DNA of 35,878 nt from positions 1 to 35,878 of the forward strand of contig JBEEGD010000065.1 of NCBI GenBank assembly GCA_041166685.1, read 5' to 3'. The DNA is from Acidimicrobiaceae bacterium. GTDB taxonomy: Bacteria; Actinomycetota; Acidimicrobiia; Acidimicrobiales; JACDCH01. Below are positions 9,580 through 32,616 of the stretch, piece after piece; position 1 is the first letter of the stretch; each line of letters starts with the position of its first letter. Position numbers and translations under genes: made by a program. A model generated the notes under the pieces. That model made no database searches. It saw only the letters and a program-made list of their open reading frames with translations, and was not told where the DNA came from.

Positions 9580-10136
9580 GGGGGCGTGTGGAAACGCTCC
9601 AGGAGCGAACGTTCCTTCGCCTGCATCGCGGCCTCGTCCTCCGGATCCGCATGATCCATTCCGAGAACATGCAAGATGCCATGGACGACGAGTAGCGCAA
9701 GCTCGTCGTCGTACGTGCCCGCGTGCGTGGGGGCGTTCTCCGCGGCCACCTGGGGACACACGACGACGTCACCCAAGAGCAACGGCGGCTCGTGGCTCTC
9801 TTCTCGGTGACCGCTCGGGCCGCTCGGGCCGTTGTCCGGCCAACGTCCGGCGCCCACGGCGTCGTCTTCGAGCGGAAAGGCGAGCACGTCCGTCGGTTCT
9901 TCGACACCCATGAACCGTTCGTTCAACTCGGTGATCGTCGTCGCGTCGACGAAGAGCAACGAGAGTTCGGCGTCACCTCGGATGCCCTCGGCGTCCAACA
10001 CCCGTTGCGCGAGAAGCTGCCACCGCGCCGTGTCCACGGGATGCGCCGCTTGTTCGTTCGCCACGAACACTTCGAGCGTGCCCTCGTCGGGCAGACGCCG
10101 GCGCTTCGACGTCAGCGGATAACTCGGGTCACTCAT
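9576..10136 (-). CDS. ybeY: rRNA maturation endoribonuclease YbeY
   Basis: It carries the metal-binding motif HGILHVLGMDH. ATG 10136 overlaps the phoH stop as ATGA. The phoH-ybeY-CBS-era order is classic. Confidence 0.95.
   Translation of the reverse strand: MSDPSYPLTSKRRRLPDEGTLEVFVANEQAAHPVDTARWQLLAQRVLDAEGIRGDAELSLLFVDATTITELNERFMGVEEPTDVLAFPLEDDAVGAGRWPDNGPSGPSGHREESHEPPLLLGDVVVCPQVAAENAPTHAGTYDDELALLVVHGILHVLGMDHADPEDEAAMQAKERSLLERFHTPP
9811..9831. repeat. tandem 9-bp repeat (CCGCTCGGG x2 plus a partial copy) inside ybeY
   Basis: CCGCTCGGG at 9811-9819 is repeated at 9820-9828 and followed by CCG. On the minus strand it encodes GPSGPSG within an apparent insertion loop (..DNGPSGPSGHREE..). 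Confidence 0.9.
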
Positions 10137-11098
10137 GTGATTGGAGGCGGCGGCGCGGCGCGCTCGTAGGCGTCGACGATGTCCTGGACGATGCGATGCC
10201 GCACGACGTCGCGGCTCGTCAGGCGAACCCACGCGAGTCCATCGATGCCCGCGAGCACCTGCTCGAGGCCCATGAGGCCGCTGCGGCCACCGGGCACGTC
10301 GACTTGCGTCACGTCGCCGGTCACGACGACCTTCGAACCGAAACCGATGCGCGTGAGGAACATCTTCATCTGCTCGGGCGTCGTGTTCTGCGCCTCATCG
10401 AGGATGATGAAGCTGCGGTTGAGAGTTCTGCCACGCATGAACGCCAGCGGCGCGACTTCGACCGTTCCTCGCTCGAGCAGTCGCTGCGCACCATCCAGCT
10501 CCACCATGTCGTAGAGCGCGTCGTACAAGGGCCGCAGGTACGGATCGACCTTGGCCATGATGTCGCCGGGCAAGAACCCCAACCGTTCACCCGCCTCGAC
10601 AGCTGGGCGCGTGAGGATGATGCGGTCGACGTCTTTGGCCTGAAGGGCCTGCACTGCCATCGCAACCGCCAGCCAGCTCTTGCCGGTACCCGCGGGGCCG
10701 ATCCCGAATGTGATCACGTTCTCTCGGATCGCGTCGACGTACCGCTTCTGGCCGCTCGACTTCGGCCGCACGGAACGGCCCTTGGCCGCTCGCAGTACTT
10801 CCGCCGTCAACACCTCGGACGGGCGCTCGTCGGCCTTCACCATGTCGATCGTGCGCGTCACGCTGGCGGGCTCGAGGCGCTGTCCCTGTTGCAGGAGGAT
10901 GACGAGCTCCTCGAACAGGCGACCGACGAGGTCGGCTTCAACCGGCTCACCCTCGATGGCGATCTCGTTGCCCCGCACGTGGATCTCCACACCGGGGAAC
11001 GCACCTTCTACGAGCCGCAACAGTTCGTCACGCTGGCCGAGCAAACCCGTCATCAAGTGATTTCCGGGCACGCTGATCTTGACTTGGGTCGAGCTCAC
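10133..11098 (-). CDS. phoH: PhoH-like ATPase (PhoH/YbeZ)
   Basis: Walker A is GPAGTGKSWLAV, followed by ..FIILDEAQNTTPEQMKMFLTRIGFGSKVVVTGDVTQVD... I chose GTG 11098 (VSSTQVKISVPG..), which gives about 321 aa. The longer track ORF adds an Arg/Pro-rich, non-protein-like extension. Confidence 0.93.
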   Translation of the reverse strand: MSSTQVKISVPGNHLMTGLLGQRDELLRLVEGAFPGVEIHVRGNEIAIEGEPVEADLVGRLFEELVILLQQGQRLEPASVTRTIDMVKADERPSEVLTAEVLRAAKGRSVRPKSSGQKRYVDAIRENVITFGIGPAGTGKSWLAVAMAVQALQAKDVDRIILTRPAVEAGERLGFLPGDIMAKVDPYLRPLYDALYDMVELDGAQRLLERGTVEVAPLAFMRGRTLNRSFIILDEAQNTTPEQMKMFLTRIGFGSKVVVTGDVTQVDVPGGRSGLMGLEQVLAGIDGLAWVRLTSRDVVRHRIVQDIVDAYERAAPPPPIT

Positions 11099-11121
11099 GA
11101 TCAGACAGAGCGTACCGTTGG

Positions 11122-11712
11122 GTGGTGGACGAGCCCCGCCGTGCGGTGCCTCCAGGGGCGGGCTTGCTGGGCGGGCCTGATCTTGCTGCTCGCCTCGAAC
11201 GCTGGGTGTCTGACGCCCGAAGCGCCGACGCTGCAGGTGCGAAAGCACGCCAGCGTTGGCTGCAAGTGCAGGCGGACGAGTCGGCGACATTCATCGGCGT
11301 CCTCCTCGATCTCGCAGAACGCGCCACTCCAGTGATGATCCACGGTCGCGGCGGACGCCGGCATCGCGGCGCAATTGCGGCCGTGGCCGCCGACTTCTGT
11401 GCGCTGCGAACGAGCGGTGGGCGCGATGTGCTGCTCGCCTTCGCGGGCATCGGGTCCGTACGGCCGGATTCGCGCGCTCCGGGGCCGAGTGGAGATCGTG
11501 CGGTGCACGCCGACCTCGGACTGGCGGAAATGCTCAGTGTTTTGGCCGCAGAGCGCCCGCGCGTGCTGATCGTGACGACCGCCGACGCGGAGGGTGTGGC
11601 CGGAGAGCTCCGCAGCGTTGGCCGCGACATCATCACGATTCGACTCGACGGCGAGCCGAGGGCGGCCGCCTACGTGGCCATCACCGCGATTGCCGAGGTC
11701 AGCTTGGTCTGA
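11122..11712 (+). CDS. hypothetical protein (apparent two-repeat small beta domain)
   Basis: GC3 is strong in this frame, and the second half looks like a real protein (..VMIHGRGGRRHRGAIAAVAADFCALRT.. / ..VLIVTTADAEGVAGELRSVGRDIITIRLDG..). The start is uncertain because GTG 11122 lies only 23 nt from the divergent phoH start. I recognise no family. Confidence 0.55.
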   Translation: MVDEPRRAVPPGAGLLGGPDLAARLERWVSDARSADAAGAKARQRWLQVQADESATFIGVLLDLAERATPVMIHGRGGRRHRGAIAAVAADFCALRTSGGRDVLLAFAGIGSVRPDSRAPGPSGDRAVHADLGLAEMLSVLAAERPRVLIVTTADAEGVAGELRSVGRDIITIRLDGEPRAAAYVAITAIAEVSLV

Positions 11713-11715
11713 CGC

Positions 11716-11943
11716 CTATTTGGCCTGTTCCACGGGTTCGGGATAGAGGTGCTCGAGGGTGCCCGGCTCGATGCGGCAGTGCTCGATGAAGCCGTCGACC
11801 TCTTCTTCCTTGAGCCGAATGACGCGCCCGAATCGGTAGGCGGGAATGTCACCTTGATCTATGAAGCGATACAAGGTACGTGGGGTGATACCCAAACGCT
11901 TGGCGGCTTCTGCGGTCGAGAGCCATCTGATTTCCGCAGGCAT
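11716..11943 (-). CDS. excisionase-family (MerR-like) helix-turn-helix DNA-binding protein
   Basis: LSTAEAAKRLGITPRTLYRFIDQGDIPAYRFGRVIRLKEEEVDGFIE matches the excisionase/HTH_17 pattern. The gene is divergent from cpaB across an AT-rich gap. Confidence 0.85.
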   Translation of the reverse strand: MPAEIRWLSTAEAAKRLGITPRTLYRFIDQGDIPAYRFGRVIRLKEEEVDGFIEHCRIEPGTLEHLYPEPVEQAK

Positions 11944-12024
11944 GGGGAGAGATTAGACCACTTCTTCGTGACTTTCGATACCTAAGATGAATTTTCTGGG
12001 TCGGAGCAGGTTTCGAGGCTCTCC
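11944..12024. promoter_or_regulatory. AT-enriched divergent intergenic region (HTH gene <-> tad operon), probable promoter/operator region
   Basis: It is visibly less GC-rich than its flanks (..gattagaccacttcttcgtgactttcgatacctaagatgaattttctgg..). A TANNNT hexamer, TAAGAT, lies at 11983-11988. I cannot assign exact promoter elements. Confidence 0.35.
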
Positions 12025-12783
12025 GTGGCCAACAACGGGGTCGTGGGGGTGGCGGTTCGGACCGGGGGCAACGGGGCGGCGACAGGGACGGCGAATGCCG
12101 ACTCCTCCCTCCTGCTCAAACGGCGGCGCAGCCTGCCGAGCGGGCGGGCCGTCGTGGGCGGGTTCCTCGTGGCGGTCGCCGCCCTCGGGGCGTTCGTGGC
12201 CGCCCGAGGCACCGGGGGCGGCCCATCGCAGCTGTACGTCGTCGTGGCGCACGACGTCGTCGCCGGCACCAAGTTGAAGGCGTCTGATCTGCGGACCACA
12301 GCCGTCGACCTCCCAGACGACATGGCGGCCCGAGCGTTCACCAACGTCGATGCGGTGGCGGGGAGAATCGCGACGACCTCGCTCGCGAACGGGGAGTTGG
12401 TGCAGGCGAGCTCTGTCGTCGGCGGCGACGCGGCCGACCCGCGCTTCCAGCTCTCGATTCCGGTCGAACGCTCTCGAGCACTCGATGGTCTCTTGGTCGC
12501 GGGCGAGAAGGTCGACGTGCTCGTCACGTATGGCACGGGCAGCGACGCCGCGACGTTCGTCGTCGTACGCGGGGCTGACGTGTTGCGCGTCGACCAGGGC
12601 CAGCGCGGCGCCTTGACCGCCAACAACGACACGATCATTCTGCTTGCCGTCGCGAGACCGGATGACGCGCTGGCTGTCACGCACGCCGCGCAGGCCGGGA
12701 AGATCACGATCGTTCGGGCCACCGCGGCGACCGCCGACAAGGGCCCGGACTCGTACCGTCCTCCGAGCGCGAAAACCTCTTGA
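12025..12783 (+). CDS. cpaB: Flp pilus assembly protein CpaB/RcpC
   Basis: An N-terminal TM helix (GRAVVGGFLVAVAALGAFVAA) is followed by a SAF-like region (LYVVVAHDVVAGTKLKASDL) and an RcpC-like C-terminal part. It has a GTG start and is the first gene of the tad operon. Confidence 0.85.
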   Translation: MANNGVVGVAVRTGGNGAATGTANADSSLLLKRRRSLPSGRAVVGGFLVAVAALGAFVAARGTGGGPSQLYVVVAHDVVAGTKLKASDLRTTAVDLPDDMAARAFTNVDAVAGRIATTSLANGELVQASSVVGGDAADPRFQLSIPVERSRALDGLLVAGEKVDVLVTYGTGSDAATFVVVRGADVLRVDQGQRGALTANNDTIILLAVARPDDALAVTHAAQAGKITIVRATAATADKGPDSYRPPSAKTS

Positions 12784-12784
12784 G

Positions 12785-14128
12785 ATGAGGGGCGAGCGGT
12801 TCGTCGCCCTCGGACTCGCGCACGCGCGTTCCGGGTGGTTCAGCGAACTCGCGCGCTGGTCAACGTCAGCAGCCATTCCGGTCGAGTTCGTCAAGTGCGT
12901 CACCATCGAAGAAGTGCGTGCCCGGCTTGCGTCGGGGCGAGTCTTCTCTGCGCTGCTCATCGACGGCGGGCTTCCTGGGGTCGACCGCGATCTCGTCGAC
13001 CAAGCCCTCGCGTGCGGATGCGCCGTGATTGTGATCGACGACGGCCGAGTGCGACGCGACTGGTCGATGCTCGGTGCGTCGGCAGTTCTGCCGGCGCAGC
13101 TCAGTCGATCCGAACTCCTCGATGTGCTCGAAACGCATGCCGTCGCCATCGGTCGCGGCGATGTCATGCCCACGGTCGACGGCTCCACACCTAGCGCGGG
13201 CTCCTGGCGAGGCCGGCTCATTGCGGTGACCGGAGCGGGTGGAACTGGAGCCTCGACCGCGGCCATCGCGCTCGCACAAGGGCTCGGTAGCGACGTGCGC
13301 TACGGAGGCCTCATGCTGCTCGCCGATTTCGCGCTCGATGCTGACCAAGCGATGTTGCACGACGCGGGCGACGTTGTGCCAGGAGTACAGGAGTTGGTCG
13401 AAGCCCACCGCAATGGCGAGCCAACCACGACCGAGGTGCGATCCCTGGCGTTCAGCGCGGCTGATCGCAACTACCACCTGCTGTTGGGGCTCCGCCGCCA
13501 CCGCGACTGGGTCGCGATTCGCCCGCGGGCCTTCGACGCTGCCTTGGACAGCCTGCGCCGCGCCTACAGGGCAGTCATCGCGGACATCGATCCGGATGTC
13601 GAGGGCGAACAACAGTGCGGCTCATTGGACGTAGAGGAGCGAAACCTCTTCGCCCGAGTCATCTCAGCTCGCGCTGATGTGGTGGTCGTGGTCGGTCTCC
13701 CGGGACCGAAGGGATTGCACCGCATGGTGCGTCTCGTCGACTCGCTCGCGGATCACCACGTCGATCCGGCACGCATTGTCCCGGTCATCAACCGCGCTCC
13801 TCGCAATCCACGCGCGAGGGCAGAGCTGACGTCGGCTTTCGCACAGCTCGTGCGGCCGTTGGTCGCAAGTCGAACCCCGTTCGCCGGTCCCGTGTACCTC
13901 CCCGAACGACGTCGGCTCGATGATGTCGTCGGCGATGGGGTACGGCTGCCGGAGGTCCTCGCGGCACCGCTCGCCGGAGCGGTCGGCGCAGTGCTCGACC
14001 GGGTCGCGACCGACGCACCGTCAGAGGCACCGGAACCAGCACGCTGGCCCGAACCCGTTCCTGTCGCGCCCGGCTCCATCGGGACTTGGACCGAGGACGA
14101 GATCGAGGGTGGCGATGGCCGTGAGTGA
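12785..14128 (+). CDS. CpaE/TadZ-like MinD/ParA-family protein with receiver-like N-domain and degenerate Walker A
   Basis: ATG 12785 lies 1 nt after the cpaB stop. The N-terminal CheY-like region contains ..FSALLIDGGLPGVD... The P-loop reads VTGAGGTGASTAAIALAQGL, compared with the canonical GKGGVGKTT. The overall fold is MinD/ParA-like and the gene sits next to tadA. Confidence 0.85.
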   Translation: MRGERFVALGLAHARSGWFSELARWSTSAAIPVEFVKCVTIEEVRARLASGRVFSALLIDGGLPGVDRDLVDQALACGCAVIVIDDGRVRRDWSMLGASAVLPAQLSRSELLDVLETHAVAIGRGDVMPTVDGSTPSAGSWRGRLIAVTGAGGTGASTAAIALAQGLGSDVRYGGLMLLADFALDADQAMLHDAGDVVPGVQELVEAHRNGEPTTTEVRSLAFSAADRNYHLLLGLRRHRDWVAIRPRAFDAALDSLRRAYRAVIADIDPDVEGEQQCGSLDVEERNLFARVISARADVVVVVGLPGPKGLHRMVRLVDSLADHHVDPARIVPVINRAPRNPRARAELTSAFAQLVRPLVASRTPFAGPVYLPERRRLDDVVGDGVRLPEVLAAPLAGAVGAVLDRVATDAPSEAPEPARWPEPVPVAPGSIGTWTEDEIEGGDGRE

Positions 14129-15452
14129 CGAGACCGCCTCACCCCTCGCCCACATCGAACGGGCCGTGCAGGAGCGGGCCAAAGACATCTCCCTCGACAT
14201 GGCCGGCGGCGACGGCAGCCCGAAGCTGCGGGTGCTCATCGATGAGGAGGTTGCTCGCTGGACCGAGGACTACAAACGCGGTCGCCGCGACTTCGATCTC
14301 GCCGATCCGGACCTCGTCGCAGAACGAGCCTTCCGAAACCTCGCGGGCTACGGGCCGCTCGAACCCCTTCTGGCTGACGATGACGTCTGGGAGGTGATGA
14401 TCAACGCCCCCGACCAGATCTTCATCAAGCGACACCGCGGCACAAGCGGGTACCACACCGAGGTCTTTCATGACGACGAACACGTCGTCCGCACGTTGAC
14501 CAAAATCCTCGATGACGCCAACACGGCCCATCGCAAGCTGGATCCGACCGAGGGTTTGCAGGACGCTCAGCTCGACGACGGAGCCCGCCTCCACATCGTG
14601 CATTCCGACGTGAGCCGCGGCGGACACGTGATGGTGAACATCCGAAAGTTCACCGGCGTCGCCTTCAAGACGCTCGAGGAGCTCGTCGAACGCGAGATGC
14701 TGACTGCACAGGCCGCGGACTTCCTGCGCGCCTGTGTGCGTTCGCGGCTGTCAATCGTCATCGCGGGCGCACCGGGAGCGGGAAAGACGACGATGTTGTC
14801 GTGCTGCGCCGCCGAACTCGATCCGTCGCTGCGTGTGGTCATCGCCGAGGAGGTTTTCGAGGCCGATGTCGCGTTGCCCAACGTTGCCTCGATGCAGACC
14901 CGGCCACAGCGCCTGGATCGTCCGGCCGTCGATCTGCGCCGGTTGGTCGCCGGATTTCTGCGGATGGCACCGGACGTCGCGATCGTGGGTGAGGTGCGTG
15001 ACCGCGAGGCGCTTCCGTTGCTGCTCACGCTGTCATCTGGTGTGAAGGGTCTCACGACGATTCATGCTGGCTCGGCCCGGCAGGCACTCACGCGTTTGCG
15101 CTTCATCTGCCAACTTGCGGACACATCGAACGACTTGCCGATGTCGGCGCTCAACGCGCTTGTCTCGGAGGCGGTCGACATCGTCGTGCACTGCGCGCGG
15201 ACCAAGCACGGGGTGGGGGTGACGGAGATCGTGTCGGTCGAGGACCTCATCGCCGGGCCAGACTCGCTGCAGTTCACCGTGACGACGTTGTTCGAACGCG
15301 CCCACGCGGGTGCACCGCTGCGCTGGAGCGGGAACCTTCCCGTGCGGGCGACCAAGGCGCTGCGCGAGGCCGGGTTCGACTCCCGCAAGCTGCTCGACCC
15401 CGACCGCGTGGCCGGCTCGAGCGGCGCGCCGGCGGAGGTGCCCTCACCATGA
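14115..15452 (+). CDS. tadA: Tad/Flp pilus assembly ATPase (CpaF/TadA, VirB11-like secretion ATPase)
   Basis: ..DDDVWEVMINAPDQIFIKRH.. is followed by Walker A IAGAPGAGKTTML, then ..IVGEVRDREALPLLLTLSSGVKGLTTIHAGSA... The start at ATG 14115 (or GTG 14121) overlaps the upstream gene. Confidence 0.95.
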   Translation: MAVSDETASPLAHIERAVQERAKDISLDMAGGDGSPKLRVLIDEEVARWTEDYKRGRRDFDLADPDLVAERAFRNLAGYGPLEPLLADDDVWEVMINAPDQIFIKRHRGTSGYHTEVFHDDEHVVRTLTKILDDANTAHRKLDPTEGLQDAQLDDGARLHIVHSDVSRGGHVMVNIRKFTGVAFKTLEELVEREMLTAQAADFLRACVRSRLSIVIAGAPGAGKTTMLSCCAAELDPSLRVVIAEEVFEADVALPNVASMQTRPQRLDRPAVDLRRLVAGFLRMAPDVAIVGEVRDREALPLLLTLSSGVKGLTTIHAGSARQALTRLRFICQLADTSNDLPMSALNALVSEAVDIVVHCARTKHGVGVTEIVSVEDLIAGPDSLQFTVTTLFERAHAGAPLRWSGNLPVRATKALREAGFDSRKLLDPDRVAGSSGAPAEVPSP

Positions 15453-16330
15453 TCGCCGCGCTTGTCGCGATCGCCGCGGCGAGCGGTGTGTACCTCGTGT
15501 ACACCGAGTTCGCCCTGGGCTGGCGGGGCTTCCACCGGCGCACGTCGACGACGCGCTACCGAGGCCGCGAACTCGGACGCGAATGGCTCGTGCAGGCTGG
15601 GCTGGCCGACGTCCGCATGGGCGAGTTCATCGGGGTGATGGCCGCGCTGTTCGTGTTCGGAGGAACGCTGGGCTTCGCGATCTTCGGAGGGCCGATACCC
15701 GCGCTCGTGCTCGGAGGCTTCGCCGCGTCGTTCCCTCCTGCATCATCGAAGGCGCGGCGCACCGCTCGGCGAGCCGCCGCGCAGGACGCGTGGCCCCGCA
15801 TGCTCGAGGAGATCAGGATCCAAACGAGTGCACTGGGCCGCTCGATCCCGCAGGCTCTCTTCGAGGTTGGCCGGCGCGGTCCGGTCGAGTTACGCCCCGC
15901 CTTCGAAGCGGCTCATCGCGAGTGGCTCATCTCGACGGATTTCGAACGCACGCTCACTGTCCTGAAGGCGCGCCTCGCAGACCCAACCGCCGACGCCACG
16001 TGCGAGACGTTGCTGATCGCGCACGAGCTGGGGGGCAGCGACCTCGAACGGCGCCTCGAAGCTCTCATCGAGGACCGCGTGCTCGACACTCAGGGTCGCA
16101 AGGACGCACGAGCGAAGCAGGCGGGCGTTCGCTTCGCCCGGCGCTTCGTGCTGCTCGTGCCTCTCGGCATGGCGTTCGCAGGGATGTCGGTCGGTACGGG
16201 ACGAGCCGCGTATCAGACCGCGCAGGGCCAAGCCCTGGTGGTTGCGGGCGTCGGGCTGACCGTCGCCTGCTGGATGTGGGCCGGACGCCTCATGAAGCTT
16301 CCCGAGGAAGAGCGGGTCTTCTACGAATGA
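15449..16330 (+). CDS. tadB: Tad pilus platform protein TadB (T2SS F family)
   Basis: The start overlaps tadA as ATGA. It has an N-terminal TM helix, a cytoplasmic helical domain and C-terminal TM helices (..FARRFVLLVPLGMAFAGMSVG.., ..ALVVAGVGLTVACWMWAG..). Confidence 0.8.
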   Translation: MIAALVAIAAASGVYLVYTEFALGWRGFHRRTSTTRYRGRELGREWLVQAGLADVRMGEFIGVMAALFVFGGTLGFAIFGGPIPALVLGGFAASFPPASSKARRTARRAAAQDAWPRMLEEIRIQTSALGRSIPQALFEVGRRGPVELRPAFEAAHREWLISTDFERTLTVLKARLADPTADATCETLLIAHELGGSDLERRLEALIEDRVLDTQGRKDARAKQAGVRFARRFVLLVPLGMAFAGMSVGTGRAAYQTAQGQALVVAGVGLTVACWMWAGRLMKLPEEERVFYE

Positions 16331-17232
16331 GACTCGTCCTGCTCTCCGCCGTCGTGCTGTGGGTTGGTGCCGCGCTGCTGTTCTCGCAGGTCAGGTGGTT
16401 TGCGCGCCGTCCGCTGGTCGATCGACTGCGGCCGTACGCGCCTGGCGGCCACCAAGGCACCACGCGCAGCGGCTTGCTGTCCGTTGAGTCATTCCGCGAA
16501 GTGATCGCGCCCCTCGCGAGTGAGATCGGAGCCCGTGTCGCGTCCCTGTTCGGTGTCGACGAAGATCTCGCCACCCGGTTGGAGCGCGTCCACTCCCCCT
16601 TGGATGCCACCGCCTTTCGCGTTCGGCAACTCGGCGTCACCTGCGCCGCGTTTGCCGTCGGTTCGTTGGCTGCGCTCGGTCTTCGGGTGCCGGCAGCGTT
16701 CGGTGTGCTGTGCGTGTTCGGGCTGCCGTTGCTGGCCTTCCTGATGATCGAGCAGCAGTTGGCCAACGAGTCCGCCAAGTGGCAATCAGGCATCTTTCTC
16801 GAGCTTCCTGTCGTGGCCGAGCAGCTCGGGATGCTGTTGTCCGCGGGCTACTCCCTCGGAGCCGCCCTGAATCGCCTGGCGTTGCGGGGCAAGGGGAACT
16901 GCGGCCGCGACCTCGCTCGGGTCTGCGGACGCATCCGCCAAGGCCTCAGCGAGGTCGAGGCGTTGCGCGAGTGGGCGGCCCTCGAACGAGTCGAGGCTCT
17001 CGATCGATTGGTCGCGCTGTTGAGACTCAATCGTGAAGCGGGCGACCTTGGCCGCCTCATCGCCGAGGAAGCACGCAGCATCCGCCGCGATGTACACCGC
17101 CAGCTCATCGAGACCGTGGAGCGACGCGGTCAACAGGTATGGATTCCGGTCACAGTCGCCACCCTCGTGCCCGGCGTGATCTTCCTCGCAATCCCGTTCA
17201 CTGAGGCGATGCGCCTCTTCACGCAGTCATAG
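16327..17232 (+). CDS. tadC: Tad pilus platform protein TadC (T2SS F family)
   Basis: The start overlaps tadB as ATGA. ..ELPVVAEQLGMLLSAGYSLGAALNRLA.. is a typical T2SSF core, and TM helices flank it. Confidence 0.8.
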   Translation: MRLVLLSAVVLWVGAALLFSQVRWFARRPLVDRLRPYAPGGHQGTTRSGLLSVESFREVIAPLASEIGARVASLFGVDEDLATRLERVHSPLDATAFRVRQLGVTCAAFAVGSLAALGLRVPAAFGVLCVFGLPLLAFLMIEQQLANESAKWQSGIFLELPVVAEQLGMLLSAGYSLGAALNRLALRGKGNCGRDLARVCGRIRQGLSEVEALREWAALERVEALDRLVALLRLNREAGDLGRLIAEEARSIRRDVHRQLIETVERRGQQVWIPVTVATLVPGVIFLAIPFTEAMRLFTQS

Positions 17233-17240
17233 GAGGACCT

Positions 17241-17474
17241 GTGCTCAGCGATCTTGTGCTCATCACGTACGTGCTGGGGCGATCAGCGGCCAGCCGTGTT
17301 CGCGAACGCTTCGGCGGCGACGACCGAGGAGAAGGTGTGATCTCTACGGCGATTGCTGTCCTCATCGTCGCGTTCTTGGGCGCAGCGATGTACGTCATCT
17401 TCACCCAGATCCTCACCAGTTCGGGATCGAAGGCCAGTACGCAAGTGAACAACATCGGTGGCGGCGGTCCCTGA
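17241..17474 (+). CDS. Flp/DUF4244-like prepilin (candidate major pilin)
   Basis: GTG 17241 is preceded by the RBS AGGAGGA (17231-17237). The 77-aa product has a charged leader ending ..GGDDRG, then the hydrophobic helix EGVISTAIAVLIVAFLGAAMYVIF. It lies immediately after tadC. Confidence 0.6.
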   Translation: MLSDLVLITYVLGRSAASRVRERFGGDDRGEGVISTAIAVLIVAFLGAAMYVIFTQILTSSGSKASTQVNNIGGGGP

Positions 17475-17862
17475 CAGGAGGAGCAGGGATCGGGGTGCCG
17501 GTCTGCTCAGCACATCGTTCGGCATCCTCTTCTTCCTCGGGTTCCTGTTCTTCGCCGTACAACTTCTCTTCAACCTCTACGCGACGTCGGTCGTGACGTC
17601 GGCGACGTACGACGCCGCCCGGAGTGTCGCTGCCAGCGGGCATCCCGCGACCGCGACCGACGCCGCGGAGGCGCGTGCTCGTGAGGCGCTCGGCAGCTAC
17701 GCGAGCCGCGTGACCTTCACCTGGGATCTTGCGGACCCTGAGGTCGTGAAATTGAGGGTCACCGCCGTGAACCCACGCTTTCTCGGTCCCGCGATCGATT
17801 CACTGGTCGGCTTCGACGTGATCGATCGAACGGTCGTCGTCCGCGTCGAGAAGTTCACATGA
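17458..17862 (+). CDS. TadE-like pilus assembly protein / minor pseudopilin
   Basis: ..SRDRGAGLLSTSFGILFFLGFLFFAVQLLFNLYA.. is a TadE-type N-terminal segment. The GTG start overlaps the pilin gene by 17 nt. Confidence 0.7.
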   Translation: MAAVPDRRSRDRGAGLLSTSFGILFFLGFLFFAVQLLFNLYATSVVTSATYDAARSVAASGHPATATDAAEARAREALGSYASRVTFTWDLADPEVVKLRVTAVNPRFLGPAIDSLVGFDVIDRTVVVRVEKFT

Positions 17863-18317
17863 GGGCGCACTGGCGAGATGACGGCGGTCAGGTCGCCGGT
17901 ATAGAGGCCGTTCCGTTCGGGATCCTTTTGTTCGTCGTCGGTGCGCTGCTCATCGCCAATGCTTGGGCGGTGATCGATGTCAAGATGGCCGTCAACTCCG
18001 CGGCGCGCGAGGCCGCGCGCAGCTACGTCGAGGCCCCCGACCATTCCCAAGCCGTTCAGGCCGCCGACCGGGCCGCTCACGAGGCGATGGTCGCCCACGG
18101 GCGAAACACGAACCTCGTCACCGTCGAAGGACCCAGCGACCTGAGCGCGTTCACCCGCTGCAATCGAGTGGCGTTCACGGTTTCCTACCCCGTGCCCGCG
18201 ATCACACTCCCTTTTATCGGCGGGTTCGGCAGCGGATTCACCGTGAAGGCAACCCATTCCGAAATCGTCGACCCCTTCCGCAACGACGTCCCGGGTGAAG
18301 CGGTGTGCGGTGCGTAA
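17859..18317 (+). CDS. TadE-like pilus assembly protein / minor pseudopilin
   Basis: The start overlaps the upstream gene as ATGA. ..RDDGGQVAGIEAVPFGILLFVVGALLIANAWAVID.. is a TadE-type hydrophobic N-terminus. Confidence 0.7.
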   Translation: MRAHWRDDGGQVAGIEAVPFGILLFVVGALLIANAWAVIDVKMAVNSAAREAARSYVEAPDHSQAVQAADRAAHEAMVAHGRNTNLVTVEGPSDLSAFTRCNRVAFTVSYPVPAITLPFIGGFGSGFTVKATHSEIVDPFRNDVPGEAVCGA

Positions 18318-18747
18318 ACCTTTGCGTAGTCGCGACCGCGGCACGGTCCTCATGCTGATGCCCGCGGCCGTACTCGTACTCCTCATGCTCGGCGGTATCG
18401 CCTTCGACTACGCCCACCTCTATCTCGCGAAGCGCGAGCTGTCGACGGTGGCCGAAGCGGCGGCCAACGACGCCGTCACGCACGGAGTCGACCAAGCGGC
18501 GGTGCGCCGGGGCGCCGGCTACGTCCTCGATCCCGCACTGGTCGTGGACTCCGTGACCGCGTCCGTCGCGACGCACTCGCCCGAACTGCACTTCATCGGC
18601 GCTCCTCAAGTCGAGATCGTGTCCCCCACACAGGTCAGGGTCACGATCGTCGCCAGCATCGATTACGTCTTCACCCGAGCCATACCAGGCACCCCCGGAT
18701 CGGAAACCGTGCGGGTGACAGCGATCGCCGAAGCCCGAACGGGCTAG
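18295..18747 (+). CDS. TadE/TadG-like pilus assembly protein
   Basis: ..SRDRGTVLMLMPAAVLVLLMLGGIAFDYAHLYLAKREL.. resembles a TadE/G N-terminal domain. The start is ambiguous (GTG 18295, GTG 18310 or TTG 18322), and all candidates lie upstream of the DRG motif. Confidence 0.7.
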   Translation: MKRCAVRKPLRSRDRGTVLMLMPAAVLVLLMLGGIAFDYAHLYLAKRELSTVAEAAANDAVTHGVDQAAVRRGAGYVLDPALVVDSVTASVATHSPELHFIGAPQVEIVSPTQVRVTIVASIDYVFTRAIPGTPGSETVRVTAIAEARTG

Positions 18748-18763
18748 CTGCTTACATTCCTTC

Positions 18764-18792
18764 TCGACAACTTTCAGTATTTCTTGTACCGT
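18764..18792 (+). promoter_or_regulatory. candidate promoter for the pseudokinase-LysM pair (leaderless geometry)
   Basis: A -35-like TCGACA (18764-18769), a 17-nt spacer and a -10-like TACCGT (18787-18792, TANNNT) lie in an AT-enriched 52-bp gap. The ATG at 18800 sits about 8 nt after the -10 and has no Shine-Dalgarno sequence. Confidence 0.3.
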
Positions 18793-18799
18793 CTCAGAG

Positions 18800-20107
18800 A
18801 TGAGCGCGCGGGTGGTGTCCGCGGTCGACACCAGCGGTTGTTTGGTAGCCCGAAAGCGGTCGCGGGACGACGCCGACGCCGTTCGACTCACCCACGAGGC
18901 GGACGTCCTGACTGCTGCCCAGCACCCCGGTGTCGTCGAGTTCGTGCGCTGCGAACGCGACGACACCGGGGTCGCGCTCGTCACGAACTTCGTCGGCACG
19001 CACTCGCTCGACACCCTTGGGCACGTCACCGTCGAGCGCGCCGCTGGTCTCATCGCCGCGCTGGCCGAGACCGTCGCAGATCTGCACGACTTGGGCATTG
19101 TCCACGGCCGCATCGATCCGTCACACGTCGTGATCGGGCCTGGAGGACGACCCGTGCTGTGCGGCTTCGCCGGTGGTGGCCGGATCAATATGACCCCTCC
19201 TCCTGGGCCTTCCGCCGCCCCGGGGTTCTGCGATCCGGCCACCACCGATGAAGCCGCCCTCACGCCTTCGGTCGATGTGTTCTCCCTCGGGGCCCTGCTT
19301 CGGGCATTGGTCATCGAGTGCGGTTCGGATGTCGAGCCGATTCCCGAACGCCGCATCACGCTCGGTCGACTTCGGGCACCGTGGTCGGGCTACCACCGAC
19401 GAGCGCTGCTCACACTCGCCGATCGCGCAACCGACGAGTCACCGCTTCGGCGACCGCCGGCTCGACGGCTCGCCGCCGACATCCACGACACTGTCCCCAC
19501 CGCGTACCTCGATCGCATGTCGGAAGACACAGCCTCGGCTTCGGCGCCTGGAGCCCACGATCCTGAGCCGTCACGAGGCGGCCGCGCCGCCACGCTGGCA
19601 GCGATCGGTGCCGCGCTCGTGATCATCGTGTTTGGTGTCACCGGCCTACGCGGAGGCGGATCCGTCGCCGCGTCGAGCGAGGTCCTCCGTTCGACGATCG
19701 ACAGTGCGCCCCCAACCAGCGTCGATCCTGCGTCCACCCCGGGCTGTCCCAGCGCGGACAGCAAGGTTGCGGTCGACTTCGATGGCGACGGCTGCCCCGA
19801 TCCGGCGTACGTGGATGACAGCGGGGTTGTCGTGGTCGGTGCCCGCCGCTTCTCGGCCGGCACGGCGGGCGATCGCGTCACGCTTGGCGACTGGAACTGC
19901 GATGGCGTGGCCACCCCGGCCGTGCTGCGGCCGGCGACGGGCGCGGTGTTCGTTTTCGACAAATGGACTACCGGAACCGCAGATGTCTCCGTCTCACCGA
20001 CCACGGTCGTCATCGGCGCGGTCGACGTGCAAGCACGCGACGACTCTCGAAGTTGCTCGACGCTGATCATCATCCGCGACGACGGCACCGAACAGGAGAT
20101 CAACTGA
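18800..20107 (+). CDS. membrane-anchored Hanks-type pseudokinase with FG-GAP/VCBS-like extracellular domain
   Basis: The kinase fold is recognisable: LVARK (VAIK-like), EADVL..HPGVV, LVTNFVGTHSL, DVFSLGALL and ..SPLRRP... The catalytic loop reads HGRIDPSH (19103-19126) instead of HRDxKPxN. DFG is replaced by CGF (19160-19168) and there is no Gly-rich loop. A TM helix AATLAAIGAALVIIVFGVTGL follows, then an ectodomain with DFDGDGCPD and GDWNCDGV. Confidence 0.8.
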   Translation: MSARVVSAVDTSGCLVARKRSRDDADAVRLTHEADVLTAAQHPGVVEFVRCERDDTGVALVTNFVGTHSLDTLGHVTVERAAGLIAALAETVADLHDLGIVHGRIDPSHVVIGPGGRPVLCGFAGGGRINMTPPPGPSAAPGFCDPATTDEAALTPSVDVFSLGALLRALVIECGSDVEPIPERRITLGRLRAPWSGYHRRALLTLADRATDESPLRRPPARRLAADIHDTVPTAYLDRMSEDTASASAPGAHDPEPSRGGRAATLAAIGAALVIIVFGVTGLRGGGSVAASSEVLRSTIDSAPPTSVDPASTPGCPSADSKVAVDFDGDGCPDPAYVDDSGVVVVGARRFSAGTAGDRVTLGDWNCDGVATPAVLRPATGAVFVFDKWTTGTADVSVSPTTVVIGAVDVQARDDSRSCSTLIIIRDDGTEQEIN

Positions 20108-20859
20108 TGAAACGCGGAGCCTTCTTCACGCGGTGGATCGGCTCGATGATCGCGCTCATCGTCGCCGTGACGTGGTTGCACCGACTCGGCCAAGGCGACC
20201 TGGCCGCGCCGCCCTGGTCAATCGACGGCCTGCGCGAGTGGCTCGACCATCGCGAGACGATTGTTGCGGCATTCGCCTTGGTTCGTCTTGTGGCGCTCGG
20301 TTTCGGGGTGTACCTGCTGGCTCTCTCGGTGTGCGGCGGTGCGGCTCGTTGCTTCGCGTTCGAACGAATGGCGACGTTCGTCGACCGGCTCACCCTTCCA
20401 TTCGCGCGGGGGTTGCTCGGCGGGATGGCACTGCTCGGCGTGATGGCCTCGCCACCGCAATTGCAACCACGGGGTCCCGACGCGATGGTCGAGCTGCCTC
20501 CCGAGTCCGATTCGACCACGTCGACGGTCGCGCCCGACACCGCCGTGCTGCACGACACCTCCGCGCCGACCGAGGCTCACGCGACGCTGCAGCTACTTCC
20601 CGAGGCGCCCGCACTCACGGCGCCCGTTTCGGCCAGCCCGAACGACGACACTTGGGTCGTGCAGCACGGCGAGAGCCTGTGGTCAATCGCGACCGAGCAC
20701 CTTGCGGATGCGATCGGGCACGAGGTGGGTGAGCGCGAGGTCGCTCCGTACTGGCGCCGGGTCGTCGAGGTCAACCGACCGAACCTCGTGAACCCTCACG
20801 ACGCCGATCTGCTCTTCGCCGGTCAGGTCATCGCGTTGCCAGCGGTCGTCTCCGGTTGA
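20107..20859 (+). CDS. LysM-domain membrane protein
   Basis: ATG 20107 shares its A with the pseudokinase stop (TGATG). TM helices are present (GSMIALIVAVTWL, IVAAFALVRLVALGFGVYLLALSV, GLLGGMALLGVMA). The C-terminus is LysM-like (TWVVQHGESLWSIATEHL...YWRRVVEVNRPNLVNPHDADLLFAGQVIALP). Confidence 0.8.
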   Translation: MKRGAFFTRWIGSMIALIVAVTWLHRLGQGDLAAPPWSIDGLREWLDHRETIVAAFALVRLVALGFGVYLLALSVCGGAARCFAFERMATFVDRLTLPFARGLLGGMALLGVMASPPQLQPRGPDAMVELPPESDSTTSTVAPDTAVLHDTSAPTEAHATLQLLPEAPALTAPVSASPNDDTWVVQHGESLWSIATEHLADAIGHEVGEREVAPYWRRVVEVNRPNLVNPHDADLLFAGQVIALPAVVSG

Positions 20860-21938
20860 CGGAGGCGCAGCGCGACCTCGTTGGCCAACAGCCGACCATG
20901 CAGCGTGAGCACCATCTGGCCGTCGTCGTTGGCGACGAGAAGTCCGTCGAGGTCCTCGTCATTCGGGAGAGCACTGGCCGGAACGCCTGCGGCGGTGCGG
21001 AGCGCGAGCTGCAGACCCTCGAGTGTGCGCGCCTCCTCGTCGAGACGCTCGTTTCCCGCTTCTGGCGACCTTCGGCCTTCAACCGCGTCGATGTAGCGCT
21101 CCGGAGTGCGAACGTTCCACCACCGACGCCCGTCGCGATGCGAGTGCGCTGCGCATCCGACGCCGAGGTACTCGCCCTGCGTCCAGTACAGGAGGTTGTG
21201 ACGACACTCGTGGCCCGGACGAGCCCAGTTCGAGATCTCGTACCACCGGAGTCCGGCACGATCGAACATCTCGGTGGCGATCGCGTACTTGTCGGCCTGG
21301 TCGTCGTCATCGGGATGACGGGCTTCGTCGTCGGCCAGAGGTGTTCCCGGCTCGACGGTCAACGCGTACGCACTCACGTGGGGTGGGTTCAGCGCAAGCG
21401 CTTCTTCGAGCGTCACGCGCCAGTCGGCGACCGACTCCCCGACTCCCCCGTAGATGAGATCAACGTTGAACGTCTCGAAACCCGCCTCGTGGACGAGCGC
21501 CACTGCGCGCCGCACGTTCGCCGGGTCGTGCGTGCGACCGAGGGTCTCGAGCACGTGCGGCACCATCGACTGCACGCCGATCGACACGCGGTTGACACCA
21601 GCCGACCGGTACGCCGCGAGCAACTCGGGTGTCACCGTGTCGGGGTTGCACTCGATCGTGACCTCGGCGTCCGGCCGGCGAGGGATCGCTCCCACCACCT
21701 CCATCAACAGCGCCGCGGGCACGAGTGACGGCGTGCCTCCGCCGAAGAAGACGCTCGTGGCGGGCGGTGCACCGTCTGCGACCATCCGGTCGATGTCGTC
21801 TCGACAGGCGCGCAGGTACCGCTCGACGAGGTGACCGCGATCCGTCCAGGTCGCGAATGCGCAGTAGTCACAGCGCCGCGCGCAGAACGGCACGTGGACG
21901 TAGTAGCCGAACGTGCCCTCGGTCAGCTGGTGAGGCAC
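20823..21938 (-). CDS. hemW: radical SAM family heme chaperone HemW (HemN-like, oxygen-independent coproporphyrinogen oxidase family)
   Basis: YVHVPFCARRCDYCAF is the CxxxCxxC radical SAM motif, followed by ..FFGGGTPS.. and a HemN C-terminal domain. I chose GTG 21938. GTG 21995 is possible but would overlap the upstream gene by 73 nt. Confidence 0.9.
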   Translation of the reverse strand: MPHQLTEGTFGYYVHVPFCARRCDYCAFATWTDRGHLVERYLRACRDDIDRMVADGAPPATSVFFGGGTPSLVPAALLMEVVGAIPRRPDAEVTIECNPDTVTPELLAAYRSAGVNRVSIGVQSMVPHVLETLGRTHDPANVRRAVALVHEAGFETFNVDLIYGGVGESVADWRVTLEEALALNPPHVSAYALTVEPGTPLADDEARHPDDDDQADKYAIATEMFDRAGLRWYEISNWARPGHECRHNLLYWTQGEYLGVGCAAHSHRDGRRWWNVRTPERYIDAVEGRRSPEAGNERLDEEARTLEGLQLALRTAAGVPASALPNDEDLDGLLVANDDGQMVLTLHGRLLANEVALRLRQPETTAGNAMT

Positions 21939-22453
21939 AGTCCCAGGTCGTCGAGGCGTTCGACGGCCTGATCGAGACCTGTATCGAGGATGCACGCGAT
22001 CGCGCGCAGGTCATCACGCCGCACCGTGAGCATGCGCCCATTGAAGTCCTGCCGTTGCACTTGGATCATCTGCAGGTAACGCACGAGCATTTGCGATGCC
22101 GCCGAGTCGAGGTCACGCAAGCGACCCAAATCGATGGTCACGGCCATGCGCGCATCTCGCTGGCCAGCCTCGGTCAGGTCGAGCACGTCCGTGCCGGAGG
22201 TGTCGCCTTCTTCTCGAGGAAGGAGTTGGTCCACGGGCACGGCATAGAAACGAGCGAGCCGCTGCAGTCGGGGCACGGAGATGGCGCGCTCACCGCGCTC
22301 GTAGGCGCCCAGCACCGAGGCCTTGAACTCTTGGCGCGATGCGGCCTCGACGTCTTGGAGCGAAAGGCCCTTTTGACGGCGAATTGCCCGGAGCCGCTCG
22401 CCTACCTTCCGACCGTATCCGGTCGGGTCTTCGAGCTGTTCGTCCTCTGGCAC
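21923..22453 (-). CDS. bldD: BldD-like XRE-family transcriptional regulator with c-di-GMP-binding signature
   Basis: The N-terminal HTH (KVGERLRAIRRQKGLSLQDVE..SVLGAYERGERAISVPRLQRLARFYAVPVDQLLP) closely parallels Streptomyces BldD as I recall it. The C-terminal domain (..LVRYLQMIQVQRQDFNGRMLTVRRDDLRAIACILD) carries RQD-X8-RRDD (22010-22054), the RxD-X8-RxxD motif. GTG 22453 is preceded by a GGAGGG RBS. Confidence 0.8.
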   Translation of the reverse strand: MPEDEQLEDPTGYGRKVGERLRAIRRQKGLSLQDVEAASRQEFKASVLGAYERGERAISVPRLQRLARFYAVPVDQLLPREEGDTSGTDVLDLTEAGQRDARMAVTIDLGRLRDLDSAASQMLVRYLQMIQVQRQDFNGRMLTVRRDDLRAIACILDTGLDQAVERLDDLGLCLTS

Positions 22454-22546
22454 GGGTTCCCTCCACCGTCGGGGACGCCCAAGGCAGCGATCACGCGCTG
22501 TCCTCCCCAACAGGCCAATCTAAACGGAATCGCCCACCTGGGGCAA

Positions 22547-25578: not shown

Positions 25579-26439
25579 ATGACGGAGGACGAGGAGGAAA
25601 GGGTGCGGGAGCCGGGGCAGGACGGCGTGCCTGACGCGCGCGCCCGTCCGCTGCTCACCGATCTCGTCAATGAGCTGTCCGTGTCCCCTTCGGGGGTCGC
25701 GTTCATTGCTTCGTGTCTCGACCGTCTCGTCGCCGCGTGGGACCTTCGTGAAGCGCAGGCCGTGCTCAACGACGCCGTGCTGGGGCTGCAGTTGTTCAAC
25801 GCGGGACGACGTCCGTTCGAGCTCGACCGCCTGCCGTCAGGAATCTTGAACCGGGGCACAGGGATCCACACTGAACCGACGATGGTCGAGGAAGCCGACG
25901 ACCTCGACGCGATCGCCCGGTTGTGCGAGGTCGCGCTCCGCCTCGACCGGTTGCATTACGAGTCGCTCCACGATCCACTCACTGGCCTGTACAACCGCCG
26001 GGGCTTCGACGATCACCTTGGTGCATCGATCAGCCGTAGCGTCCGGTACGGCTGGAGCTTTGGGCTCGTGATCCTCGACCTCGACGGGTTCAAGGCCATC
26101 AACGACCGCATCGGCCATCAAGGTGGCGACACCGTGCTGCGTCAGGTCGGCGAGCAACTGCGTCACGGCTTGAGGGCGGGCGACATCGCGGCGCGTGTCG
26201 GCGGCGACGAGTTTGCGCTGCTGTTGCACATCGACGGTCCCAACTCCATCGAGGCGATCCTCGATCGGCTACATGGCCACCAAGGCAACAACGACGGCGA
26301 CATCACCTGGACCGCCGGGTTGGCGATGTGTCCCGACGAAGCATCGACCGTCGACGACCTGTACCGCGTCGCCGACCAGCGGCTCTATGAGTCGAAAGCC
26401 GCAACATCGAAGCGCAGCAACGCGCCCTCACGGTCGTAG
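25579..26439 (+). CDS. diguanylate cyclase (GGDEF domain) with uncharacterised N-terminal domain
   Basis: HDPLTGLYNRRGFDDHL...LVILDLDGFKAINDRIGHQGGDTVL...RAGDIAARVGGDEFALLL spans the domain. The GGDEF active site is intact, with an RxxD I-site (RAGD) exactly 5 residues upstream (26173-26214). I recognise no sensor fold in the N-terminal 130 aa or so. Confidence 0.9.
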   Translation: MTEDEEERVREPGQDGVPDARARPLLTDLVNELSVSPSGVAFIASCLDRLVAAWDLREAQAVLNDAVLGLQLFNAGRRPFELDRLPSGILNRGTGIHTEPTMVEEADDLDAIARLCEVALRLDRLHYESLHDPLTGLYNRRGFDDHLGASISRSVRYGWSFGLVILDLDGFKAINDRIGHQGGDTVLRQVGEQLRHGLRAGDIAARVGGDEFALLLHIDGPNSIEAILDRLHGHQGNNDGDITWTAGLAMCPDEASTVDDLYRVADQRLYESKAATSKRSNAPSRS

Positions 26440-32494: not shown

Positions 32495-32616
32495 GCACCC
32501 TCCCGATGGTCGATGTTGTCGGATACCGGGGAAGGGCGCGGTGACGCGCGCGGGAAAGATTAGGAGCGGGGTGTGACAGCGGGAACCAGCGGCAGGAGTC
32601 GTTCGTCCGACCGTGC

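Follow-up and report, generated by a model that had tools for sequence, protein, structure and literature searches.

The gene at positions 18800-20107 (+) of the Acidimicrobiaceae DNA analyzed here, the full 35,878 nt of which we call the window, encodes a 435-amino-acid (aa) bitopic membrane protein with three parts: a Hanks-type kinase fold, one transmembrane (TM) helix and a 122-aa, Cys-bridged beta ectodomain. The product is, with high confidence, a maintained pseudokinase and not a decaying gene. The gene adjoins the 3′ end of a Tad pilus cluster running from CpaB to a TadG-like gene, exactly where the first-pass annotation of this DNA had placed it, and its stop codon overlaps the start of a gene for a LysM-type membrane protein. 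We lean toward the view that the product works with the Tad system. The pseudokinase and its LysM partner together may well form an envelope-spanning accessory module of the adjacent monoderm Tad pilus, a call that we place a little short of even. The features on which the following relies are:

18800-20107 (+): pseudokinase gene, an open reading frame (ORF) for a 435-aa bitopic membrane protein; stop codon TGA at 20105-20107
18800-19504 (+): cytoplasmic pseudokinase domain, residues 1-235, without beta1 and the Gly-rich loop; Lys19 and Glu33 kept; alphaG not predicted
19103-19126 (+): degenerate catalytic loop HGRIDPSH, residues 102-109, replacing HRDxKxxN (alignments to PDB and sister kinases)
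19160-19171 (+): C121-G122-F123-A124, the DFG-1 residue and the DFG-equivalent triplet, Asp replaced by Gly (alignments)
19334-19354 (+): family-specific loop EPIPERR (EPIPxRR), residues 179-185, at the would-be place of alphaG
19586-19642 (+): single TM helix, residues 263-281 (helix in the structural model; hydropathy peak 260-291)
19739-20104 (+): extracellular beta domain, residues 314-435, with two DxDxDG-type loops and four Cys
19775-19801 (+): first loop, DFDGDGCPD, residues 326-334 (sequence)
19886-19909 (+): second loop, GDWNCDGV, residues 363-370 (sequence)
20107-20859 (+): translationally coupled partner of 250 aa; ~3 TM segments, linker rich in Pro and Thr, divergent LysM domain at the C-terminus

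A Hanks-type kinase fold without its catalytic residues

The cytoplasmic domain belongs to the Hanks-type kinase superfamily, with a bilobal fold by profile. Pfam Pkinase (PF00069) matches at 40.7 bits, above its gathering score of 31.7, and aligns residues 3-172 to profile positions 13-192 of 263; because the match begins at position 13, the Gly-loop part of the profile has no counterpart in the protein. A profile built from the family retrieves PAK4, StkP and PknA from the PDB at 1e-10 to 1e-16, StkP and PknA being among the best bacterial matches. An AlphaFold2 (AF2) model of the full-length protein, computed from a 31-sequence alignment, has a mean predicted local distance difference test score (pLDDT) of 83 and consists of a kinase fold, the TM helix and a beta-rich C-terminal domain. 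Foldseek confirms the kinase fold, matching the full model to protein kinases at E ~1e-11. The modeled kinase domain has only four N-lobe strands and no helix at the alphaG position.

Central elements of a competent kinase are lost: the HRD Asp, the catalytic-loop Lys and Asn, the DFG Asp and GxGxxG are all missing. The loop HGRIDPSH aligns on HRDLKPEN of PDB kinases and on HGDVKPAN of active sister kinases (described below), which puts Arg in place of the Asp, Asp in place of the Lys and His in place of the Asn. Alignment with the intact sisters assigns G122-F123-A124 to the DFG triplet and C121 to DFG-1. What does persist is the pairing of the VAIK Lys (K19) with the alphaC Glu (E33), to which VVALK and RREA correspond in the alignment with the active sisters; the same alignment identifies subdomain IX as DVFSLG and places the subdomain XI Arg in RRP. 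Only 18 residues separate the start of the protein from the VAIK Lys. The first-pass annotation had recognized the kinase subdomains, the missing Gly-rich loop, the change of HRDxKPxN to HGRIDPSH and a dead catalytic set overall, and the Pkinase-profile, PDB and sister-kinase alignments agree with it, none of them recovering a functional HRD/DFG set. Its reading of DFG as CGF was right about the lost Asp but off by one in register. As the catalytic residues are missing, the name “serine/threonine protein kinase”, carried by the identical protein in its automated source annotation, is misleading.

These losses are a property of the whole family. A homologue search across 5.8 billion proteins returned 278 relatives, every source name of which points to Acidimicrobiia (metagenome-assembled genomes (MAGs) or metagenomes), and motifs were counted in the 189 retrieved relatives that include the kinase part. 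A complete catalytic set occurs in 0/189, and no member combines the DFG Asp with the other catalytic residues. HGR is present in 146 and His at the catalytic Asn position in 182, the catalytic-loop Lys position holds Asp or Glu across the family, and CGF or CGL predominates at the DFG region. The VAIK Lys is retained in 171 relatives and the alphaC Glu in 174; the distance from the N-terminus to the Lys has a median of 18 residues, and upstream of it 181/189 have no GxGxxG-like match. In the 31-sequence alignment H102, G103, P118, L120, C121 and F123 are invariant and K19 and E33 nearly so. The family also has a feature of its own in EPIPERR, of which E179, I181, P182, R184 and R185 are nearly invariant in the same alignment and which is absent from the active sister kinases. 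The model has low pLDDT in this region and shows no helix between alphaF and the following helix. AlphaG is a common docking site in kinases, and EPIPxRR occupies its place.

The closest relative on a long contig (L081; such labels denote fetched loci of relatives) is an Acidimicrobiaceae MAG with 65% identity on a 732-kb contig, seen in two assemblies (also as L082). Measured against L081, the kinase domain has a ratio of nonsynonymous to synonymous substitution rates (dN/dS) of 0.15 and the ectodomain one of 0.23, in the same range as the neighboring housekeeping genes HemW (0.15) and RsmE (0.26); dS is near saturation in this comparison, so all these values are rough. The kinase domain is under purifying selection. 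An N-terminus shorter than that of any active kinase might suggest a gene in decay or an artefact of annotation, for instance a truncated kinase ORF. However, the short N-terminus and the degenerate motifs recur in the 189 relatives, the low dN/dS and the confident AF2 model speak for a maintained protein, and the ORF already begins at the earliest start codon available downstream of the preceding in-frame stop. The conservation data refute this reading, to which we assign next to no probability.

The residues that took the place of the catalytic ones are themselves strongly conserved: D106, H109 and C121 (window 19112-19162) replace the catalytic Lys, Asn and DFG-1. Judged by residue type, Asp/Glu106, His109 and Cys121 could be metal ligands, for which they are typical, and they would sit where Mg-ATP would bind. 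It could be argued that the domain is rewired and not dead, with a non-canonical activity or a ligand or metal bound through Lys19-Glu33 and these three positions. SelO and SidJ are precedents for atypical chemistry in “pseudokinases”, the replacement residues are conserved, and Lys and Glu are retained in ~90% of members. The VAIK Lys, moreover, is lost in all seven catalogued bacterial pseudokinase families, unlike in this one. Nonetheless, the domain has lost beta1 together with the whole Gly-rich loop, and it retains neither the catalytic Asp nor the two Mg2+ ligands, which makes a rewired domain very improbable.

The ectodomain and the LysM partner

The single TM helix and the Cys-containing ectodomain with its two motifs, DFDGDGCPD and GDWNCDGV, are present as first described. 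The second loop (GDWDCDG in the family) is invariant, as are C367 and C419. The first loop is found only in some members and is accompanied by C316 and C332, which never occur without it. Modeled alone, the ectodomain is a nine-strand, all-beta domain with pLDDT 93. Foldseek gave nothing significant for this model, the best match having E=0.06 and all matches being propeller blades, designed or natural; “propeller-blade-like” is as far as the predicted fold may be named. The “FG-GAP-like” label of the first-pass annotation is weakly favored by Pfam FG-GAP_3, which matches residues 319-334 at E=0.42 and the homologue L061 at E=0.002, both under the gathering score, and by precomputed PF13517 or PF01839 matches in two relatives. 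An ectodomain profile found 163 proteins below 1e-30, and in most of the best 150 matches the domain stands at the C-terminus of a 400-650-aa protein. Profile positions ~36-84 also match repeatedly, in 7-28 tandem stretches, in giant multi-repeat FG-GAP/VCBS-like proteins. By sequence likeness, “FG-GAP/VCBS-like” appears a fair but unproven label. The same ectodomain was seen on a partly degenerate kinase in the cultured Salinilacustrithrix flava (CP133888.1, L066 9194-10486), which has HGH instead of HRD and retains the Asn and DFG.

The pseudokinase stop and the partner start share one base in a TGATG overlap, as the first-pass annotation had it, and the partner is directly 3′ of the pseudokinase in 43/59 loci with enough sequence, a count for which one locus with a 3-nt overlap was tallied by hand. 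Its hydropathy profile has two clear segments and a weaker third. The assignment to LysM recurs in homologues, yet lies below the curated cutoff: Pfam LysM (PF01476) scores 17.8 bits against a gathering score of 20.9 (E=0.003), with an insertion inside the domain, and homologues score 13-20.7 bits, sub-threshold but consistent across members. NCBIfam PRK11198 also matches the partner as LysM at E=7e-4. The LysM gene (+) and the HemW gene (-) converge, their 3′ ends overlapping by 37 nt as ORFs (20823-20859), and therefore an intrinsic terminator has no room between them.

Linkage to Tad clusters and what it may mean

CpaF, TadB/TadC, Flp, TadE-type, TadZ and CpaB genes together in one cluster identify the locus upstream of the pseudokinase as Tad/type IVc:

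12025-12783 (+): CpaB/RcpC-like SAF-domain protein, first gene of the Tad cluster (Pfam RcpC 34 bits and SAF 33 bits, both above gathering)
12644-14128 (+): TadZ/CpaE-like ParA-type ATPase (weak CbiA match, conserved locus position); start probably downstream of 12644
13920-15452 (+): CpaF/TadA secretion ATPase (Pfam T2SSE 105.9 bits)
15449-16330 (+): TadB platform protein (synteny, TM profile)
16327-17232 (+): TadC platform protein (T2SSF 37.5 bits, synteny, TM profile)
17241-17474 (+): Flp-type pilin (size, TM segment, GEGVISTAIAVLIV motif in the sequence)
17458-17862 and 17859-18317 (+): two TadE-like pseudopilins (TadE matches below gathering; NCBIfam TadE_Rv3655c)
18295-18747 (+): TadE/G-like protein (Pfam and NCBIfam Tad-type matches in the block 17241-18747)

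Pfam Tad (PF13400) scores 29.6 bits, above gathering, in the pilin/TadE/G block (17241-18747). The genes of the cluster overlap or abut, the single gap being 52 nt just before the pseudokinase, and the spacing is operon-like from CpaB through the LysM gene. A promoter and terminator scan of 11200-21200 found sites no more numerous than in shuffled controls. No prepilin peptidase was found among the scanned window ORFs. The Tad block has a guanine-cytosine content of 0.63-0.69, like the remainder of the window, on which ground its recent horizontal transfer was rejected.

For comparison across relatives, loci were searched with the window proteins in one-genome-per-species assemblies, sorted by context and clustered by sequence into subfamilies; 80 loci with 10-kb flanks were kept, no assembly being common to two of them. 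The usual order is PhoH(-), CpaB, TadZ, CpaF, TadB, TadC, Flp, TadE, TadE, TadG-like, pseudokinase, LysM, HemW(-) and BldD-like(-). Within the window’s own subfamily the pseudokinase is Tad-adjacent in 25/28 informative loci. The order is not rigid: in three of these Tad-adjacent loci (L004, L006, L009) the pseudokinase-LysM pair as a whole has the reverse orientation, between Tad and HemW. In a second subfamily it is the Tad operon that is inverted, with LysM directly after TadG and the pseudokinase divergent at the TadZ end; this arrangement is seen in L034 and L072 and apparently in four shorter loci too.

A sister clade supplies a further case. In 11 loci the same ectodomain is joined to a complete kinase with the G-loop GAGASG, VVALK, HGDVKPAN and DFG; one of these kinases scores 155 bits over the full Pfam Pkinase profile. 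The sister kinase heads a second Tad operon in 8/8 loci with enough downstream DNA (L025, L022, L026, L028, L029, L031, L039, L043), in the order kinase, 3-TM LysM-like, SAF/CpaB-like, TadZ-like, CpaF-like and, further on, a T2SSF platform protein. In L025 this operon covers 9890-18647, with gene spacing of 4-12 nt. The C-terminal LysM-like domains of the two partners are homologous (BLASTP 5e-7; hhalign 96.8%, E 2.8e-10). Thus the triad of kinase fold, LysM and Tad occurs twice, differently arranged, and because it recurs in two arrangements it provides the strongest argument that the linkage is functional and not an inherited gene order.

How such a module might work can be outlined from these features. 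The product would be a catalytically dead descendant of a Hanks-type receptor kinase whose small extracellular beta domain of FG-GAP/VCBS type carries disulfide bonds and probably binds Ca2+, and it and the 3-TM LysM protein would be produced in a fixed ratio. On the cytoplasmic side, the pseudokinase domain would offer a platform for docking, with the conserved activation segment and the EPIPxRR loop in the place of alphaG as candidate contacts; it could receive the cytoplasmic Tad components TadZ, CpaF and TadB/C, or else a paralogous kinase that is still active. On the outer side, the assembly would be fastened to peptidoglycan or to the emerging fibre through the ectodomain and the LysM domain. 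A physical complex of the pair, its binding to peptidoglycan and an effect on piliation are what we infer from this arrangement, and the pair might, as the first-pass annotation proposed, anchor or license pilus assembly through the cell wall. That the pseudokinase acts as a wall-anchoring or docking module is a tentative proposal. More tentative still is the wider idea that Acidimicrobiia own a Tad-dedicated (pseudo)kinase-LysM pair in two paralogous versions, the active one heading one operon and the dead one closing another, which would couple the motor to the wall and to outside cues. If true, a type IV filament machine of a monoderm would for the first time be credited with a kinase-fold subunit or regulator, and one module would have switched naturally from enzyme to scaffold. 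Among type IV filament machines, the Tad (type IVc) machines of single-membrane bacteria are considered the smallest. The cohesion of the monoderm Tad machine and the passage of its fibre through the wall have been stated to be unresolved (PMC6916266). The pair is a testable candidate for this missing link, with a kinase fold on the motor side and LysM on the wall side.

Several observations weigh against a dedicated role in the pilus. Three further subfamilies with other degenerate motifs have no Tad genes nearby; one of them retains the LysM and BldD-like neighbors. In all, Tad genes are absent within 8-10 kb from 14 loci and from three more whose flanks are short, and L061 and L008 are Tad-less within the window’s own subfamily. 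The S. flava gene lies between homoserine dehydrogenase (hom) and lysA, with Tad genes absent within 10 kb. Scans of the Tad genes turned up neither an FHA domain nor another phospho-reader, the matches to LysM and FG-GAP fall below curated thresholds, and the sole evidence for a role in piliation is gene linkage. That linkage could in part be inherited gene order, given the conserved housekeeping block in which the genes sit: the Tad cluster and the pair are flanked by the order-conserved era, ybeY and phoH on one side and hemW, bldD-like, rsmE, dnaJ, hrcA and lepA on the other. Lastly, L081 retains the pseudokinase and LysM genes intact despite the loss of Tad. The first-pass annotation’s claim of a Tad link is supported for the window’s own subfamily, the inverted-operon subfamily and the sister clade, and is weakened by the pair’s occurrence elsewhere without adjacent Tad, in the other subfamilies, L061, L008 and L081.

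The L081 locus is collinear with the window at 75-80% nucleotide identity, save window 11843-18408. L081 (near 9610) and L082 lack 6.57 kb here, with TA(C/G)GC microhomology at the junction; the missing part comprises the 5′ part of an HTH_17 gene, CpaB through TadE2 and the first 38 TadG-like codons. Since the HTH_17 and TadG-like genes are truncated at the microhomology junction, it is L081 that carries a deletion, and the converse, a Tad cluster inserted in the window, was rejected on the same ground. The TadG-like remnant has a dN/dS of 0.09 and is free of stop codons, so the deletion looks recent and has little bearing on long-term independence from Tad; it was accordingly not accepted as proof of such independence.

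The reading that profits most from these loci is that the pair is a general envelope module for wall homeostasis or signalling, unrelated to the pilus, like the FhaA-recruiting MviN pseudokinase, and that Tad adjacency comes from a shared chromosomal block. It accommodates the pair without adjacent Tad in L061, L008, L018, L049, L068, L071 and the Tad-deleted L081/L082, and it draws on the classic ordered housekeeping genes of the flanks and on a BldD-like and/or HemW gene nearby in 33 of the 41 loci that have at least 6 kb downstream. However, the sister clade repeats the kinase-LysM pairing at a different Tad operon in every locus that could be read, with tight spacing, LysM is still attached to TadG in the inverted operons L034 and L072, and both the near-constant Tad adjacency of the own subfamily and the apparently recent date of the L081 deletion count against it. 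We consider this reading unlikely, though a serious one.

It is also conceivable that the dead domain is a signalling partner, acting as an allosteric activator, decoy or phospho-acceptor scaffold for an active paralogue or another Ser/Thr kinase, while the ectodomain senses a surface or wall cue and tunes Tad activity or expression. The existence of an active sister clade with the same ectodomain suits this idea, as do the retained Lys-Glu pair, ordered activation segment and C-lobe core, and pseudokinase-kinase pairing and phospho-dependent scaffolding are established modes (PMC12599244). Against it, the 80 loci share no assembly and so yield no genome with both the active and the dead form, and the window ORFs that were scanned include neither an active kinase nor a phosphatase or FHA gene. 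We hold it to be distinctly unlikely; it overlaps with an accessory module of the Tad pilus and does not exclude it.

Other genes of the window deserve mention. The upstream edge of the Tad cluster is marked by a conserved 196-aa ORF of unknown function (11122-11712, +), 81% identical in L081 with dN/dS 0.10, together with the excisionase-type HTH_17 gene (11716-11943, -). A BldD-like regulator (HTH and BldD-like_C; 21923-22510, -) is the pseudokinase’s most persistent neighbor across subfamilies, and a GGDEF diguanylate cyclase (25579-26439, +) lies 3 kb from it. Streptomyces BldD is an effector of cyclic di-GMP. ComEC (Competence domain; 30719-32671, -) and ComEA (SLBB and HHH; 34683-35387, -) are encoded ~10 kb from the Tad cluster. 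In Micrococcus luteus, natural transformation proceeds via Flp/Tad pili together with ComEA/ComEC (PMC4322843). Given this precedent and the nearby ComEA/ComEC genes, DNA uptake is, by analogy, a plausible role of the window’s Tad pilus, although the proximity may also be the ordinary holA-comEC-comEA order.

Comparison with known systems

The first-pass annotation had presented the protein as a scaffold of a kind not yet characterized. Membrane pseudokinases are already known in Gram-positive envelope machines, EssB/YukC and MviN among them, and the claim has to be narrowed accordingly; a Hanks-derived one with Tad pili is not described in the literature searched, which connects neither kinases nor pseudokinases of Hanks type with Tad or type IV pili. 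EssB/YukC is the pseudokinase-TM-ectodomain subunit of the type VII secretion system b (T7SSb), where it contacts several T7SSb subunits, cannot bind ATP and may, according to one proposal, set the position of the machine with respect to peptidoglycan (PMC9600267). Layout and dimensions agree, with a cytoplasmic N-terminal pseudokinase of ~200 aa, one TM segment and ~140 extracellular aa in a Gram-positive envelope-spanning machine, and EssB/YukC has lost parts of the Gly loop, VAIK and catalytic motifs. In contrast, the EssB ectodomain is all-alpha whereas that of the window protein is all-beta, the machines differ (T7SSb vs Tad), and the role of EssB in its machine was shown experimentally whereas that of the window protein is proposed from gene linkage. 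No YukC/EssB match appeared in Pfam at E<=1, in NCBIfam, among the best 60 PDB sequence matches or in the top Foldseek lists. Membership in EssB/YukC or MviN was rejected, as neither gave sequence or top structural matches.

The MviN pseudokinase of Mycobacterium tuberculosis is a phospho-dependent scaffold in wall synthesis (PMC12599244). Like the window protein, MviN (MurJ; ActPs3) is actinobacterial and membrane-tethered and has a dead Hanks-type domain linked to the cell wall. It differs in being fused to a polytopic flippase, in a large activation-loop deletion and in the loss of the VAIK Lys, whereas the activation segment of the window protein is present and ordered and the Lys is kept. 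The Atlas of bacterial Ser/Thr kinases preprint distinguishes seven pseudokinase families, with VAIK Lys loss in all seven and in every member of five, and ActPs1, ActPs2, ActPs3, GLW and DLHK are defined by this loss in all members. With the Lys kept in 90% of its members, the window family does not fit the catalogued definitions, from which it is set apart by their descriptions, not by their sequences. ActPs1 comes near in being actinobacterial, in substituted HRD and DFG Asp, in the absence of alphaG from ~60% of its members and in a C-terminal domain of beta-propeller type (PQQ_2). However, every ActPs1 member is without the VAIK Lys that 171/189 keep here, and by description its PQQ_2 ectodomain differs from the FG-GAP/VCBS-like one of the window protein.

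For the partner gene, an analogy may be drawn with FimV and TsaP, the LysM-bearing peptidoglycan anchors of diderm type IVa pilus machines with secretins. In both cases the gene for a LysM protein accompanies those of a type IV filament machine, a likeness compared by the LysM motif only; unlike the window’s partner, FimV and TsaP belong to diderm systems and are not paired with a kinase-like protein. Receptor kinases of the PknB/StkP/PknA type and the sister clade share with the window protein the succession of kinase domain, one TM segment and extracellular domain, and the sister clade also has the ectodomain and a LysM partner in common with it; the difference is the catalytic apparatus, complete there and lost in the window protein. 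The family would add to the short list of bacterial pseudokinases a member in which the Lys-Glu pair, gone from most members of the catalogued families, is kept and for which a living active paralogue is available for comparison.

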